From assembly GCA_963849325.1 (NCBI GenBank), contig CAWKHF010000005.1, forward strand, positions 928,001-992,000: a stretch of DNA of 64,000 nt. The letters run 5' to 3'. Each line of letters starts with the position of its first letter. The stretch's first letter is position 1. The translations under genes and the position numbers were made by a program. This document shows positions 2,855-62,009 of this stretch, in pieces. The DNA comes from an uncultured Planctomycetota bacterium. GTDB taxonomy: Bacteria; Planctomycetota; Planctomycetia; Gemmatales; Gemmataceae. The notes under the pieces are model-generated. The model was not told where the DNA came from. It was given only the letters and a program-made list of their open reading frames with translations, and made no database searches.

Positions 2855-3035
2855 ATTGCCCCACGCGGAAGGCAAACCCCTTCGGTCCCCGCGTCACGGG
2901 TCGATCCGGAGTTGGGATCGGTTTCGGCCTCTAACCCTCTTAGGGGCACGTCTCATGCCGGGGCCGATCCCTTCTCGTGGCCTCGACCGCGTGTACCTTT
3001 CGTCCGGCGCAACCAACCTCTCGGCAGGAGGAACC
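2855..3035. ncRNA. Candidate ~180-nt rod-shaped structured RNA (6S-like)
   Basis: Nested long-range stems (2914-2928 with 2957-2971; CACGGGTCGA with TCGACCGCGTG; ~2859-2872 with ~3017-3031); TTGACG-N17-TAGGAC on the minus strand at 3068-3040; strand uncertain. Confidence 0.35.
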
Positions 3036-23999: not shown

Positions 24000-24141
24000 A
24001 AATAAACCACAGATGAACACAGATGAACACGGATCAATTCAAGAGAGGGAGAAAGCGCCGGCAAACGTGCCCCTCGACGGCCTTCCGCCTGCCTTTTTTT
24101 GCTTTTATCCGTGTTTATCTGTGTTCATCTGTGGTTTATTT
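24000..24141. repeat. Tandem-unit inverted repeat family D (ACACAGATGA-type 10-mers)
   Basis: Arms AAATAAACCACAGATGAACACAGATGAACACGGAT and ATCCGTGTTTATCTGTGTTCATCTGTGGTTTATTT; second copy at 58942. Confidence 0.9.
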
Positions 24142-56867: not shown

Positions 56868-57016
56868 GGGCCGCTCCCGGAACGCAATCGGCAAGGGAGG
56901 AGAAGCAACGGCCCCACTCTAGCACGGATCGGACGACGCGGATACTGACTTTTGTGGACGGACGAGGTATCCTGACGGGTAGGGCAAATCTCACCTCCCT
57001 TCGGCGAGGTCGCATC

Positions 57017-58868
57017 ATGAAGAAGCTACTGACGGTGGGACTCCTGGCCGGCGTCATGCTGACAGCGATGGTCAACCCGGCTCGCGCCGTCGATCCGGAC
57101 GCCGTCAAACGGGCCGTTGATCGAGGCGTAACTGCATTGCGGGGTTTGCAGGGCGCCGACGGCACCTGGCGTTATCCGGAGATCGGCGCCACCGCCCTGG
57201 CCGGATTGACTCTGCTGGAGTGCGGCGTGCCGGCGGACGATCGGTCGGTGTCGCAGGCCGCCGAGGTCGTGCGACAGGCCGGCGTCACTCTGACGCACAC
57301 CTACTCGATCGCCCTGATCCTTCTCTTTCTCGATCGCCTCGGCGATCCGGCGGACGAGGCGTTGATTGAATCGCTGACCGTGCGTCTGCTGGGAGGGCAG
57401 GGCAGCACGGGTGGCTGGACCTATCATTGTCCGGCGATCCCGGAGAAAGAGGTGCGGCGCCTGCAGGCGAAGCGGAATGACCGGAAAGGACCGGCGGATG
57501 GCCGCGATCCTCCCAAGCCCGGTCCCGGTCAACGTGCGGGCAAGAAGTTGCCCGCGGAGATCCAGCAACAACTGGCCGCGCTGAGCCGAGCGGGTGCGAC
57601 CTTCGGCACCGGACAGAGCGACAATTCCAACACGCAGTTCGCCACGCTGGCCTTGTGGGTGGCCCGGCGTCATGGCTTACCCGTTGAAAAAGCCTTGCGC
57701 CTCATCGACGCCCGTTTCCGCACCAGTCAGAACCCCGACGGCGGCTGGGGCTACTCCGATTGGCGAACGGGACGCGGACCCGGCCGGCGTGCCGCCTCGA
57801 CCGCCTCGATGACCTGTGCCGGCCTGCTCGCTCTGGCGGTGGAGCATGGGGCGGCGCTGGAAAGCGCCGCGCGAAAAAACACGTCCGAGACCTTGGCAAG
57901 GACACCGCCGTGCGCAAGGGCTTACTCGCCCTGGGCACCGCGGTCGGCAATCCGGCCGGGGCAGGGCGCCGATGGGCAATGGCGGAGGCGTCGCGCGGGT
58001 GGGCGGACGAACATATTATTTCTTGTGGTCGCTGGAGCGTGTCGCCGTGGCGCTGGACTTGAAGACGATCGGCAAGAAAGATTGGTACGGCTGGGGCGCG
58101 GAAATCCTGCTGGCCAATCAACAGCGTGACGGCTCTTGGGATGGCGATTACTCGCCCGCCGGCATCGACACGTGTTTCGCGCTGTTGTTCCTCCAGCGCG
58201 CCAACCTGGCGCGCGATCTGACGTCCCGGATTACCGGCAAGTTGCAAGACCCGGCCGAACGGACCCTCAAGGGCGGCGGCGTCGGCGGCTCCGCCGTGCT
58301 CGGCGAGAGCATCGCCCAGATCAAGCCGGGCCTCGAAAGCAAGGACGCCCAACCGATCGCCAAGCCGCTGCAGGATCTCCCCGCCAATCCCAAGCCGCTG
58401 AATACTCCCAGCACGCGGATGGCGGACGACCTGGTGAAATCGTCCGGCTCGCGCCAGACGTCGCTGCTGAGCCACATGCGTGATGGCAAGGGCGTCGTGT
58501 TCACGGAGGCGTTGGCCTACGCGATTCCGCGTCTGCGCGGCGACATCCAGCAACAGGCGCGGCGAGCGCTGGTCGAACGTCTGACGCGCATGAAGGCGGA
58601 GACGCTGAGGGATTATCTCGAAGACGAAGACGCCGAGATTCGCCGAGCTGCTGCCCTGGCCTGCGCACGCAAGGAGAACAAGGCGCTCACTCCCCACCTC
58701 ATCCCGCTTGTGGGCGACGCGGATCGCTCGGTGGCGGAGGCGGCGCATGCGGCCTTGAAAGATCTCACCGGCCAGGACTTCGGTCCCGCCGCCGCGGCCA
58801 GCCGCGAAGACCGCGAACAAGCCGCGCGCAAGTGGCTCGATTGGTGGAACAAACAGGACGGCAAATAG
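57017..58868 (+). CDS. Secreted prenyltransferase/squalene-cyclase-repeat (QW) protein with C-terminal HEAT repeats; frameshifted
   Basis: QGADGTW, DNSNTQFA.L.LW, QNPDGGWGY, YYFLWSLERV, QQRDGSW, HEAT-like IRRAAALA. Confidence 0.75.
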
Positions 58869-58941
58869 TCCGCGTCCAAGTCCGTTCTTCAAGCCGCTTG
58901 CGGCTTGGCGTGCGCCCCGCAGCGCTAAGTGCCTCTAATAA

Positions 58942-59077
58942 AATGAACCACAGATGAACACGGATGAACACGGATAAAAGACAAAATGAGAGAAAGACAC
59001 CGGAAAGGGAGCGTTCCTCGCTAGCGCTTTTCTTTTTGTTTTGATCCGTGTTCATCTGTGTTCATCTGTGGTTCATT
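58942..59077. repeat. Tandem-unit inverted repeat family D, second copy
   Basis: AATGAACCACAGATGAACACGGATGAACACGGAT ... ATCCGTGTTCATCTGTGTTCATCTGTGGTTCATT. Confidence 0.9.
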
Positions 59078-59193
59078 ATTTTACAGGTTATAAGCCGCAA
59101 GGGGCTTGGGCGACCGACTCTCCCTTGCCATCCGCTGCCTTTGCTGCTACAAGATTCTTACGTTGCTTTTCGACGATCGGGGAGCTTGCCGCG

Positions 59194-59289
59194 ATGGCAC
59201 GTCGGACGAACCTGGCAGCCTGCATCCTCCCGGCCCCGCTGGCCGGTCGGGCTGTTCTCGTCGCCGCCGCCATCGCTGTCACGGGCTAA
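59194..59289 (+). CDS. Putative attenuator leader peptide, 31 aa (MARRTNLAACILPAPLAGRAVLVAAAIAVTG)
   Basis: GGGGAG RBS 9 nt before the ATG; Ala/Val/Leu/Ile run of 10 codons; stop directly abuts the antiterminator arm. Confidence 0.75.
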   Translation: MARRTNLAACILPAPLAGRAVLVAAAIAVTG

Positions 59290-59351
59290 CCGGGTCGTCT
59301 TATCTCGATTGGAGAACCACGACCCGGGGTAGCCCCCCGGGTTTTTTCTTT
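59290..59351 (+). terminator. Attenuator: mutually exclusive antiterminator and intrinsic terminator
   Basis: Terminator ACCCGGGG-TAGCC-CCCCGGGT-TTTTTCTTT (59322-59351); antiterminator CCGGGTCGT (59290-59298) pairs with ACGACCCGG (59319-59327). Confidence 0.8.
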
Positions 59352-59369
59352 CCCGCCTGGAGAACCCTC

Positions 59370-60719
59370 ATGCCGCCGGTGCCGCTGTCGTCGCGCTCGC
59401 AACGCACCACCGAGTCCCCCATCGGGTATTTCGTGCGCCTGGCCCTGGAAGATCCCTCGCTCATCAGCCTGGCCGCCGGCCTGGTCGATGAGGAGTCGCT
59501 GCCGGTCGAGGAGGTCGCCGAGGCGCTGGCCGAACTGCTCGCCCAGCCCACCGCCGGCCGGGCCGCCCTCCAGTACGGCACCGTCCAGGGTCATGGGCCG
59601 CTGCGCCGGCAGATCCTCCATCGCTTCGCCGCCGCCGACGGACTGCGTCCCGAGGACGTGAGCCTGACGCCCGACGAGGTCGTCATCACCACCGGCTCGC
59701 AGCAATTGCTGGCCCTGCTCGCCGACGTCCTGCTCGATCCGGGCGACATCGTCATCACCGAGGCGCCGACCTACTTCGTTTATCAGGGCGTCCTCCAGAG
59801 CGCCGGCGCCCGCGTCCATGCCGTGCCGATGGACGCCGACGGGCTGAACACCGACGCCCTCGACGAACTACTGCGGCGTCTGGATCGCGCGGGCGAGCTG
59901 GGGCGAGTGAAGCTGATCTACACCTGCGACTACTATCAGAACCCGACCGGCCTGACGCTGTCGATGCAGCGGCGGCGAAAGCTGCTGGAGCTGGCGCGAC
60001 AGTATAGCCGTTCGCATCGCATCCTGATCCTGGAAGACGCCGCCTACCGCGAGCTGCGCTATGAAGGCGAAGACCTGCCGAGCATCAAGAGCTTCGACAC
60101 CCGCAACGAACACGTCATCTGGACTTCGACCTTCTCCAAGCCATGCGCTCCGGGGCTGAAGACCGGCTACGGTATCCTGCCGCGCGATCTGGTCGGCCCC
60201 TTGCTGCGGCTGAAGGGCAATCACGACTTCGGGTCCAACAATCTGACGCAATACCTGCTGGAGCGCCTGCTGGCGAGTGGGGCCTATGATGTACACGTCG
60301 AACGGCTGCGCGACGTCTACCGCCGCAAGCGCGACGCCCTGCTCGACGCGCTGGCGGCGGAATTTCGAGATGACCCGCGAATCTCCTGGACGCGGCCGGC
60401 GGGCGGACTGTACGTGTGGGCGACCTTCCCGCCCGGCATGGAGGCGGGTCCGTCGAGCCGGCTACTGCGGGCGGCGCTGGACGAAGGCGTGCTGTACGTT
60501 CCCGGCGAATACGGCTACGTCGCCGACGACGGCGCTCCGTTGCCGCGCCACGAGGCGCGGTTGAGCTTCGGGGTGGCGACGCCGGAACAGCTTCGTGAAG
60601 GCGTCCGCCGTCTGCGCCGGGCCATCCTGTCCGCCTCTGCCGGCGCGAAGGACTGGGGAGTTAGTCACGGAACACCCAGCGCATCATCTCCCCCAACTTC
60701 GCCCCCTTGCCCTGCATGA
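59370..60719 (+). CDS. PLP-dependent class I/II aminotransferase (LysN/AvtA/MocR-AT-like)
   Basis: ISLAAG, ALQYG..QG...LR, TTGSQQ.L, QNPTG, EDAAY, STFSK...PGLK.G, RLSF; GGAG RBS. Confidence 0.9.
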   Translation: MPPVPLSSRSQRTTESPIGYFVRLALEDPSLISLAAGLVDEESLPVEEVAEALAELLAQPTAGRAALQYGTVQGHGPLRRQILHRFAAADGLRPEDVSLTPDEVVITTGSQQLLALLADVLLDPGDIVITEAPTYFVYQGVLQSAGARVHAVPMDADGLNTDALDELLRRLDRAGELGRVKLIYTCDYYQNPTGLTLSMQRRRKLLELARQYSRSHRILILEDAAYRELRYEGEDLPSIKSFDTRNEHVIWTSTFSKPCAPGLKTGYGILPRDLVGPLLRLKGNHDFGSNNLTQYLLERLLASGAYDVHVERLRDVYRRKRDALLDALAAEFRDDPRISWTRPAGGLYVWATFPPGMEAGPSSRLLRAALDEGVLYVPGEYGYVADDGAPLPRHEARLSFGVATPEQLREGVRRLRRAILSASAGAKDWGVSHGTPSASSPPTSPPCPA

Positions 60720-62009
60720 GGATGCCGACGCGGAAGACGCGGCCGGCGGCCCAGACGCACAGCATCGTCGTGGCCAGCACCACCACGGCGCCAACGACTG
60801 GCTGCCAGGTCTCGACGCCCGGCGGCACCGACTGCCGCACGATCATCAGCATCGGCGTAGCGAAGGGGAAGAACGATAGTCCCGTGGCCACGGAACTGTT
60901 GGGTTCCTGCAAGACACTGCCCAGGAGAAACATCGGCATGACCGCCAACATCATGACCGGCCACATCAAGTTCTGCGTCTCCTTCATGTCCGTGCAGGCG
61001 GCGCCGATGGCGATGAACAGCGAGCCGTACATCAGCGCCGCCAACGCCTGGAAGACGACGAACCAGGCCAGCAGATGTCCGGGAATGTACTCGGCGAAAC
61101 CGTAGTGCTGCGCCGACCAGTACACGCCGCCGAGGTAAACCGCCGTGATGGTCAGCGACACCGCCGTCATGCCCAGCAGCTTGCCGAGCATCAGGTCGAA
61201 CGGCCGTACCGACGCCAGAAGCACCTCGGCGATGCGCTGCATCTTCTCCTCAACCACGCCCTGCATGAGCGGCGTCGCACTCATCATGATAATCATGAAC
61301 ATCAGCATCATGAAACCCATCGGCACGGCCACCGGAGCGAACCGGCTCTGCAAGGTGGCGTCCTCGATTTCGCCGGTGATCGGGTTGCGCCGCGTCAACC
61401 CCTTCGATTCGAGCGTCACTGGCCGCATGACCTCGCGCACTTTCTCCAGCGGCGCCTGCAAGCCGGCCTCGCGGAAGCGGAGTTCCTGCACGCGGGGAGC
61501 CAGAAACGTCCTCATCAGGCGCGGGAAGCTCTCATTGGTGGGACGATTCGACTGGTAGCGGATGCCGTGACGGTCCTCGGCGTCGTCCGCGAGCGATGGC
61601 GGCTGGAGGACATCGGGACCGATGTCGAGGAAGCCGAACAACTCCCCGTTGCGAACGCGCTCGGAGAGGTCGGCGCGTTGTCCGGCCATCGCCTCAGGTG
61701 TATCCGCCGAGGGCGCCACTGCCTCCACGCGGAAGAACGGCTGCACCTGCTTGCCCGTCTGGGGATCGCGCGTTTGCGTCGGTTGTACTGCTCGACACAC
61801 GCTTCGATGGACGGATAGAGGCGGGTGCCGGGAGTGCGATCGACGACCGCGAAGCGCTTCTCGGCGATATCGTGAAAATCGCGTAGAAGCCACTGCACCA
61901 GCAGACTGCCGCCCATCATGACCGGCATGATGACCAGGCTGACGACGAACGCCTTGGTGCGCACGGCGGCCAGGTACTCGCGCACGGCGACGACCAACAT
62001 CTTACGCAT
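60661..62009 (-). CDS. ABC-2 type transporter permease (NatB/YhaP-like); one frameshift near 61775
   Basis: REY...VRTKAF, VVEEK..RI.EVLL.SV.P..LM.GK, P..TP..M..R. Confidence 0.85.

Follow-up and report, generated by a model that had tools for sequence, protein, structure and literature searches.

A candidate three-segment transcription attenuator with an alanine-rich leader peptide upstream of an aminotransferase gene in Gemmataceae

Introduction

Leader-peptide attenuation is textbook knowledge for tryptophan, histidine, phenylalanine, threonine, leucine and isoleucine/valine, and long runs of control codons are typical of the his and phe leaders. Here we analysed the region in front of an aminotransferase gene in a 64,000-nucleotide (nt) stretch of DNA from an uncultured bacterium of the family Gemmataceae, phylum Planctomycetota (GenBank assembly GCA_963849325.1, contig CAWKHF010000005.1, positions 928,001 to 992,000 of the forward strand; this whole stretch is hereafter called the window), in which an earlier note had read an Ala/Val-rich leader-peptide attenuator. 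From comparative sequence evidence, the element is likely to be a transcription attenuator of the ribosome-mediated leader-peptide type, whose control codons specify Ala, Val and Ile and which controls the aminotransferase gene as a monocistronic unit.

The element resembles the enterobacterial his, phe, thr, ilvGMEDA, leu and trp attenuators in having a short upstream open reading frame (uORF) with a long cluster of control codons near its stop, an anti-terminator whose 5′ strand would be masked by a ribosome at the stop codon, and a mutually exclusive terminator just before the first structural gene. It differs from them in its Ala/Val/Ile control residues, in having three pairing segments, in being predicted ON without translation, in having a lone aminotransferase gene rather than a pathway operon as its target, and in its occurrence in the phylum Planctomycetota.

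The closest described parallel is, by analogy, the whiB7 uORF of mycobacteria, which is described as universally enriched in Ala, as part of a switch between a Rho-independent terminator and an anti-terminator and as sensing alanine starvation, with WhiB7 feeding back on the alanine aminotransferase aspC; the authors use the name “Ala leader” (PMC10274678). For the whiB7 uORF of M. smegmatis an Ala content of 24.1% is given (bioRxiv 10.1101/2025.10.10.681568). As characterized in these sources, the whiB7 uORF shares with the Gemmataceae leaders an Ala enrichment that is kept while the sequence varies, an anti-terminator favoured by stalling and a link to an alanine-forming aminotransferase. 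In contrast, whiB7 encodes a transcription factor that activates aspC, whereas the Gemmataceae leader sits directly on the aminotransferase gene, and the whiB7 uORF is longer and more mixed in composition than the Gemmataceae leaders, which contain 38–49% Ala, are co-enriched in Val and Ile, depleted in Leu, and belong to a different phylum. Membership of the whiB7 type was considered for the present element and rejected: it would work alike, but an aminotransferase is encoded downstream and its relatives belong to the Gemmataceae. Terminator/anti-terminator leaders for branched-chain amino acids are described for ilvBNC of Corynebacterium glutamicum and for ilv-leu of Staphylococcus aureus, the latter with a Leu-rich peptide (PMC11857589, PMC5794164). 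According to these accounts, they too have a leader peptide rich in aliphatic residues, but they are Ile/Val/Leu or Leu leaders, whereas the Gemmataceae leaders are dominated by Ala, are poor in Leu and have a lone aminotransferase gene as their target.

Full-text literature searches brought up neither a planctomycete attenuator nor an alanine leader in front of an aminotransferase. In the passages of Korolev et al. 2016 consulted, Planctomycetes figure in leader-gene distance statistics only and the present element does not appear (PMC4833913). The earlier note had stated that neither an alanine-sensing nor a planctomycete attenuator was known to it; the first half gives way to the alanine-tuned whiB7 uORF of mycobacteria, and the second agrees with the literature searches.

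Results

A leader reading frame, an anti-terminator and a terminator upstream of the aminotransferase gene

The sequence of the window was read from 58700 to 60800, and the following features, all on the plus strand, make up the leader and its gene.

59125–59153, plus strand: promoter-like site, TTGCCA (59125–59130), 17-nt spacer and TACAAG (59148–59153), read from the sequence
59180–59185, plus strand: GGGGAG, Shine-Dalgarno-like, 8 nt 5′ of the uORF ATG, read from the sequence
59194–59289, plus strand: leader ORF (uORF) with ATG at 59194, 31 codons and TAA at 59287–59289, from the ORF listing
59251–59280, plus strand: control-codon run AVLVAAAIAV, codons 20–29, corresponding to positions −12 to −3 from the stop
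59283–59335, plus strand: anti-terminator hairpin GGGCUA..CCGGGUCGU..loop..ACGACCCGG..UAGCCC, a predicted fold
59290–59298, plus strand: segment 2, CCGGGTCGT, which abuts the stop on its 3′ side and forms the 5′ strand of the anti-terminator
59319–59329, plus strand: segment 3, common to the anti-terminator (59319–59327) and to the left arm of the terminator (59322–59329)
59321–59351, plus strand: intrinsic terminator, stem 59321–59343 and T tract to 59351, from the terminator scan
59359–59362, plus strand: GGAG, ribosome-binding site of the aminotransferase gene, 7 nt 5′ of its ATG
59370–60719, plus strand: pyridoxal phosphate-dependent class I/II aminotransferase of 449 amino acids (aa), ATG at 59370, assigned by Pfam

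The uORF, which is the end part of a frame open since 59041 in the ORF listing, encodes the 31-aa product MARRTNLAACILPAPLAGRAVLVAAAIAVTG with 10 Ala, 4 Leu, 3 Val and 2 Ile, and 10 of its 15 final codons specify Ala, Val or Ile. The sequence ACGACCCGG at 59319–59327 is perfectly complementary to segment 2, and it overlaps the left arm of the terminator, ACCCGGGG (59322–59329), which is followed by the loop TAGCC, the right arm CCCCGGGT (59335–59342) and the tail TTTTTTCTTT, ending at 59351, 18 nt ahead of the aminotransferase ATG. In the hairpin of the terminator scan (59321–59343) the stem consists of 8 Watson-Crick pairs and one G-T pair. The foot of the anti-terminator takes in the last sense codon and the stop codon of the uORF. 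Its minimum free energy (59283–59335) is −33.3 kcal/mol (z = −3.6), with no equally stable fold among 200 shuffles, and the minimum-free-energy form of the entire leader (59160–59375) contains the hairpin formed by segments 2 and 3 (2:3). All the elements that the earlier note had listed here, namely GGGGAG, the 31-codon ORF, the complementary segment, the 8-base-pair (bp) terminator and the T tail, were found in the window sequence, as was its TTGCCA-N17-TACAAG site, although a strict sigma-70 consensus scan of this region called no promoter-like site. A further observation is that GGAGAACC occurs twice in the window, once in the anti-terminator loop (59311–59318) and once in the ribosome-binding region of the aminotransferase gene (59359–59366).

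A search of 58600–59600 against Rfam 15 with cmscan at an expect value (E) ≤10 gave four matches, none to a leader family (His, Leu, Thr, Trp, Phe and others). The sole match over the leader was to anti-hemB, the terminator of an unrelated small RNA, at 17.9 bits against a gathering threshold of 49.5 bits (E = 0.21). The two strongest matches, to plant microRNA-precursor models, were set aside as they cover a long hairpin palindrome at 58931–59088 and not the leader.

Conservation of the leader in orthologous loci

An alignment of 28 homologous proteins (A1) was used as a profile to scan genome contigs; at least 600 stretches matched, of which 560 proved to be relatives, and the loci studied here (given below by handles of the form L050) are the best 80 of these 560, with 3-kb flanks. 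Start codons were placed in 80/80 loci, L050 being cut at its 5′ end. Inspection of 130 nt upstream of the ATG in each locus revealed a common layout in most of them: a run of GCN/GTN/ATY codons, a stop codon, CTCCGGG or a variant directly after it, 25–35 bases that vary, then a hairpin (for example GGCCCCGGAG-loop-CTCCGGGGCC) and a T-rich tail ahead of the gene. In 77 loci the upstream sequence is at least 150 nt long; in 71 of these, and in the window, a script detected a hairpin with a T-rich tail no more than 200 nt from the ATG, and it detected none within that distance in L004, L011, L016, L025, L068 and L069; L030, L034 and L050 have too little upstream sequence for this count. A leader was scored where at least 8 of the last 15 codons specified Ala, Val or Ile and the stop of the ORF lay 25–45 nt ahead of the terminator, which was the case in the window and in 60 loci; these 61 leaders were used in the analyses below. 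Ten loci with a terminator fell short of these thresholds (L002, L003, L008, L010, L013, L019, L073, L077, L078 and L080), and L079, where a terminator is also present, offered no candidate ORF.

A covariance model (R1) was trained on the 61 leaders in alignment A2, with the terminator as its sole structure, and run on both strands of the window and the 80 loci (551,575 nt). It gave 63 strong plus-strand matches (E ≤8e-7), comprising the window and 62/80 loci, one per locus and each upstream of the aminotransferase gene; L073 and L004 were strongly matched although outside the training set. Minus-strand matches corresponded to the palindromic terminators themselves, and no second copy of the leader was found by R1 in the window or in the 80 loci, matches at other sites having E ≥0.34 (0.59 and 0.88 in the window). 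The leader is present in loci labelled Gemmata (L007, L017, L021, L036 and L065) and in those of the cultured Limnoglobus roseus (L020) and Zavarzinella formosa (L043). The earlier note had proposed looking in the upstream regions of orthologues for a conserved Ala/Val-rich uORF with alternative stems, and this combination is present in 62/80 Gemmataceae loci.

The surroundings of the gene are not conserved. The six proteins adjacent to the aminotransferase in the window have relatives in only 0–2 of the 80 loci, and when flanking ORFs of at least 120 aa were clustered the largest family was found in 8/80 loci, so that no conserved downstream gene, and hence no operon clue, emerged; in the window the next gene is convergent to the aminotransferase gene. 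Since the leader always accompanies the aminotransferase gene while the neighbours differ, it travels with the gene and not with the neighbourhood.

Several loci carry variants of this arrangement. In L073 the Ala frame continues past the usual stop to a TGA inside the anti-terminator loop (L073:2883–2985), and the leader of L004 is about 270 nt away from its ATG (L004:2638–2733). L080, from a genome with 40% GC, has a degenerate and less Ala-rich leader (L080:2889–2989) in which segments 2 and 3 still match (CTCCGA/TCGGAG). In L010, L019 and L078 a promoter-like CTTGTC-N17-TAGGAA abuts a complete hairpin with its U tract. Repeat elements stand in front of the gene in L016 and L025, which have no strong R1 match, and short-unit repeats (CTCTGTG...CTCTGTGG, GGATAACAGGAT...) occur in L016, L025, L042 and L005, either between the leader or terminator and the ATG or 5′ of the leader; the intergenic region before the aminotransferase gene thus seems to attract repeat elements.

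Reading frame and codon composition of the uORF

Of the three frames, the one closed by the conserved stop was the richest in Ala, Val and Ile in 61/61 leaders. The last 15 codons contained on average 11.1 codons for these residues, compared with 2.7 (standard deviation 1.8) in 10,265 control ORF tails drawn from the window and loci in all six frames, a set that includes the leaders themselves and in which only 0.57% of the tails had 10 or more of 15. An in-frame ATG was present 20–45 codons ahead of the conserved stop in 55/61 leaders, the other 6 having GTG or TTG candidates only, and leader length ranged from 23 to 45 codons with a median of 33.

Over the last 20 residues, Ala, Val and Ile made up 49%, 14.7% and 6.6%, respectively, as against 9.4%, 7.5% and 3.9% in the aminotransferases; over full-length leaders Ala amounted to 38%. 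In contrast, Leu was depleted (4.6% in the last 20 residues of the leaders vs 12.7% in the enzyme), as were Gly, Arg and all rarer residues, with Lys at 0.7% and Phe at 2.1%. The control codons that the earlier note had read as Ala and/or branched-chain are consequently retained for Ala, Val and Ile and dropped for Leu. By position, Ala, Val and Ile together account for 56–93% at every position from −3 to −19 and Ala for 74–80% at −3 to −5, and the final residue is Thr in 52% of leaders. A ribosome covers about 12–13 nt beyond the first base of its A site. With control codons up to −3, the end of the run therefore coincides roughly with the last position at which a stalled ribosome would leave segment 2 free.

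Apart from this composition the peptide sequence is not conserved across the leaders, which are diverse outside the run. In 16 close pairs of equal length, which overlap in membership, 35, 65 and 91 differences fell at codon positions 1, 2 and 3, respectively, and this third-position excess lends weak support to translation of the uORF. Codon choice in the last 20 codons of the leaders also departs from that of coding sequence, with GCT and GCA together at 27% vs 11%, GTT at 36% vs 8% and ATT at 43% vs 18%, and with GCG and GTG depleted; possible explanations are that rarer codons sharpen sensing or that a G able to pair with segment 2 is avoided. Many leaders start with an Arg-containing motif, …AR.R[FI]A….

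Mutually exclusive pairing of segment 3 with segment 2 and segment 4

A contiguous run of 2:3 pairs (Watson-Crick or G-U) of at least 6 bp was found in 58/61 leaders and of at least 7 bp in 44/61, and in 58/61 it begins 1–5 nt from the first base of the stop codon, so that the stop either abuts segment 2 or belongs to it. There are 28 distinct segment-3 cores, each with its own matching segment 2; examples of segment 3/segment 2 cores are CCCGGAG/CTCCGGG, CCCCAGG/CCTGGGG and CCGAGGTC/GACCTCGG, the window having CGACCCGG/CCGGGTCG. The duplex of the 14 nt after the stop with the left arm of the terminator had a mean energy of −14.1 kcal/mol, compared with −6.9 kcal/mol for shuffled sequences, and reached p ≤0.05 in 53/61 leaders. 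For the window, segment 2 and the left arm gave −11.6 kcal/mol vs −5.3 kcal/mol after shuffling (p = 0.02).

This was further examined on alignment A2, where 86% of the cells of the anti-terminator helix were paired, with changes on both sides in 4/7 pairs, and 85% of those of the terminator helix (segments 3 and 4; 3:4), with changes on both sides in 6/12 pairs. For either helix, the observed number of double-change cells was reached by 0/500 shuffles, and for both helices shifting the partner by 1–3 columns lowered pairing to 24–69%. Specifically, column 94 covaries both with column 37 in segment 2 (UA 34, CG 13) and with column 104 in segment 4 (AU 44, GC 15), and such co-changing with both partners is what mutually exclusive helices predict. 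The covarying 2:3 and 3:4 stems that the earlier note had suggested seeking in orthologues are thus borne out by compensatory changes in both. RNAalifold run on the MAFFT alignment returned 6 terminator pairs only and did not predict the anti-terminator, which for this reason was tested as a named structure and sequence by sequence; a model-fitted alignment (A5) was left out of the pair counts owing to one-column register shifts in some rows (e.g. L057).

Promoter-like sites and the 5′ untranslated region

A promoter-like TTGNNN-N16-18-TANNNN lies 25–110 nt 5′ of the uORF start in 50/61 leaders, whereas shuffled sequences averaged 8.4 and did not exceed 15, and the stricter form TTG[CT]CN is present in 33/61 vs a shuffle mean of 1.3. 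A median of 36 nt separates the end of the −10 element from the start codon of the uORF. At the other end of the leader, the gap between terminator and ATG is 18–52 nt in most loci (18 nt from the T tract in the window), which leaves no room for a separate aminotransferase promoter. In Gemmata-like loci (L005, L007, L012, L023, L036, L065 and others) the stretch from the promoter-like site to the uORF start contains a conserved GTCGAGAGAAnCCG-like motif.

The aminotransferase downstream of the leader

The 449-aa product matches Pfam Aminotran_1_2 (E = 8.8e-35). No NCBIfam model reached its cut-off, the best being those for the aminotransferase domains of MocR-like/PdxR (236 bits) and MppQ (193 bits). 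Its relatives of solved structure include the “multiple substrate aminotransferase” MsAT of Thermococcus (1wst, E = 5.8e-68), PH0207, TM1131 (1vp4), LysN (2egy, 1.5e-54) and the alanine-glyoxylate transaminase AGT (2zc0, 5e-53). A protein search yielded at least 6,492 homologues with E ≤1e-30 among 8,000 candidates scored; the top 120 are 63–81% identical, the named ones being from Gemmataceae, and many homologues bear “2-aminoadipate transaminase” as an automatic name from one source. The earlier note favoured an AvtA-like enzyme over LysN. Membership of the AvtA family found no support, the NCBIfam model for valine-pyruvate transaminase (NF006967) scoring 84.4 bits against a cut-off of 402 and the nearest structures being MsAT, PH0207, LysN and AGT; judged by these relatives, the enzyme is LysN/KAT/MsAT-like (fold-type I), not AvtA-like.

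The other half of that suggestion, that the enzyme is not LysN in function, is plausible. Ouchi et al. reportedly dealt, in the title of a 2009 study, with the role of Arg23 in LysN. In the account of PMC4094517, Arg23 of LysN holds the distal carboxylate. The equivalent position is occupied by S, T, G or N in 80/80 sequences with the motif (L050 is truncated), and that of LysN Ser20 by S or Q; in the window the residue at Arg23 is Gly19, placed there by the 1vp4 alignment directly and by the LysN alignment once this is extended, ungapped, by one residue. Assignment to LysN by Arg23 and Ser20 was rejected on the replacement of Arg23 in all 80, and Lys amounts to 0.7% of the leaders. The leader logic offers a lead to a role of the enzyme in the supply of Ala, perhaps also of Val and Ile, and would speak against one in the lysine pathway.

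The aminotransferase ORF overlaps the convergent ORF of an ABC-2 permease (60661–61893, minus strand) by 59 nt (60661–60719), which reflects either a C-terminal extension of the window enzyme (449 aa compared with about 432–443 aa in many orthologues) or an over-extended permease ORF.

Discussion

A three-segment mechanism

The 61 leaders combine a leader ORF, a 3′ cluster of control codons and a terminator before the gene with, in 58 of them, a stop-linked anti-terminator, all of them parts expected of a leader-peptide attenuator. The core of what the earlier note had read in the window, an attenuator with Ala/Val control codons, is therefore supported by conservation in 62/80 loci, by the frame in 61/61 leaders and by compensatory changes. 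In the mechanism proposed here, transcription would start about 35–45 nt 5′ of a uORF of about 30 codons, whose last ~17 sense codons, the final one or two excepted, are mostly Ala codons with Val and Ile codons among them. When the tRNAs for Ala, Val and Ile are well charged, the leading ribosome would reach the stop codon and mask segment 2, leaving segment 3 to pair with segment 4, and the GC-rich hairpin with its U tract would terminate transcription 18–50 nt ahead of the gene. When a charged tRNA is scarce, the ribosome would stall in the run, at least 3 codons before the stop, and leave segment 2 free; 2:3 would then form as segment 3 emerges, no terminator would arise and the aminotransferase gene would be transcribed. 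Because no segment 1 is detectable, an untranslated leader is predicted to read through, giving a default ON state, unlike in trp. We infer that the uORF is translated, that stalling at Ala, Val or Ile codons is the signal, that the U tract is where termination takes place and that Ala, perhaps also Val and Ile, is supplied by the enzyme. The expectation of the earlier note that the gene responds to the supply of Ala and/or branched-chain amino acids is accordingly narrowed at the level of control codons to Ala, Val and Ile, without Leu, and the response itself would follow from these codons.

Several observations weigh against this reading. No segment 1 could be recognized: a duplex of the uORF coding region with segment 2 (1:2) was better than shuffled sequences at p ≤0.05 in just 1/61 leaders, and its mean energy over the 61 leaders (−12.1 kcal/mol) was weaker than the shuffle mean (−13.5 kcal/mol). 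As no 1:2 pairing is detectable, no pause or synchronising hairpin of the classical model was identified. The terminator is the thermodynamic minimum of the stretch from stop to terminator in 51/61 leaders, although in the window the anti-terminator is the more stable (−22.6 vs −15.9 kcal/mol); with the terminator favoured in most leaders the switch must be kinetic, the free partner of segment 3 at its emergence winning. The covariation counts come from a MAFFT alignment of related sequences with register shifts. A Shine-Dalgarno-like tetramer lies within 18 nt of the candidate ATG in only part of the loci, and the uORF product, with its positive N-terminal charge and the hydrophobic stretch after it, is also reminiscent of a small membrane peptide. 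Of the 80 loci, 18 lack a strong R1 match, 3 of them having too little upstream sequence, and L010, L019 and L078 retain the hairpin while the uORF and segment 2 are missing (2900–3003 in each); these three may represent a natural deletion of the sensor. Ribosome-mediated attenuation further requires a ribosome close behind RNA polymerase. That transcription is spatially separated from translation has been proposed for Gemmata-type cells (Gottshall et al. 2014, as cited in PMC5394234 and PMC5287468), and if general it would be incompatible with the proposed mechanism. The trp/ilv/thr-type geometry claimed for the window accordingly holds for the stop-linked 2:3/3:4 switch and not for a segment 1. 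Since segment 1 is taken to define the four-segment trp model and not the whole class, the element is filed as a three-segment variant.

Alternative explanations

The same architecture could serve a uORF that senses translation stress in general, such as antibiotics or starvation for any amino acid, as proposed for whiB7. Without a segment 1, any delay of the ribosome before the stop should yield read-through, and the leaders are diverse outside the control run; the whiB7 uORF is itself described as reacting to many amino-acid and translation defects (PMC10274678). A general sensor does not, however, explain why Ala reaches 38% over the whole leader and 49% in the last 20 codons, compared with the 24.1% given for M. 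smegmatis whiB7, or why Leu, Gly, Arg and all rarer residues are depleted, and the target is an aminotransferase gene, neither a stress regulator nor a resistance gene. We regard a general sensor as unlikely.

Two other explanations dispense with the coupling of leader translation to transcription of the gene. The uORF might encode a stable hydrophobic membrane micro-protein with a terminator of its own, the aminotransferase being expressed independently and 2:3 having no regulatory role; the many leaders in which Arg residues close to the N-terminus precede 15–20 hydrophobic ones fit this, as do the conserved position and length of the ORF. Residues usual in membrane helices are nevertheless low (Leu 4.6%, Phe 2.1%) next to 49% Ala, and what is conserved is the composition and not the peptide sequence. 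The micro-protein would also leave unexplained that the stop is locked to segment 2 in 58/61 leaders, that segment 2 covaries with the terminator arm and that the ORF always accompanies the same gene although the neighbours differ, and in most loci the 18–52 nt between terminator and ATG are too short for the promoter it would need; we consider it very improbable. Alternatively, the leader might act as an untranslated RNA, either a riboswitch or the target of a protein-binding anti-termination system, with the Ala-codon run as a GC-rich spacer. Terminator/anti-terminator alternatives also serve as the expression platform of riboswitches, and the three loci that keep the hairpin without a uORF (L010, L019 and L078) would suit such a switch. 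Against it stand the lack of a match to an Rfam family, the interval between segments 2 and 3, which varies in length and sequence in A2 and shows no conserved aptamer core, and the conservation of frame, start codon and stop position, which an untranslated RNA does not need. Its probability appears minimal, and the ribosome-mediated attenuator with Ala, Val and Ile control codons is preferred here.

Significance

Our judgement is evenly balanced on whether this is the first attenuator with an Ala (plus Val/Ile) leader placed directly on an aminotransferase gene and the first leader-peptide attenuator class defined in Planctomycetota. If the attenuator reading is true, the enzyme family automatically named “2-aminoadipate transaminase” would stand out as the Gemmataceae transaminase for alanine (and valine/isoleucine), and alanine supply would be limiting and sensed in these bacteria; the leader would thus be a regulatory clue to the function of a large and probably mis-named enzyme family (at least 6,492 homologues). 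It would likewise extend ribosome-coupled attenuation to Planctomycetota and provide a gene-level test of the coupling of transcription and translation in Gemmata-type cells, a matter debated in planctomycete cell biology. The element would represent a natural three-segment design with the deletion variants L010, L019 and L078 as possible controls, and a compact, genetically testable reporter of coupling in Gemmataceae.

Other features of the region

Directly 5′ of the leader promoter, the palindrome at 58931–59088 is a near-perfect hairpin about 158 nt long and composed of 10-nt units in tandem (CCACAGATGAACAC...). It has a second copy at a distance of 35 kb, at 24007–24134, and a 14-mer of the palindrome gave 8 matches at ≤2 mismatches compared with 0.25 expected. 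The element looks like a repetitive extragenic palindromic (REP) sequence or a miniature inverted-repeat transposable element (MITE).

Further upstream, the plus-strand ORFs at 56954–58129, with a weak squalene-hopene-cyclase-like repeat, and 57816–58868, with HEAT repeats, lie in different frames and overlap by 314 nt. This overlap may reflect a frameshift or an over-extended ORF in GC-rich DNA; the squalene-hopene-cyclase-like and HEAT parts adjoin each other in L011 and L013 as well.

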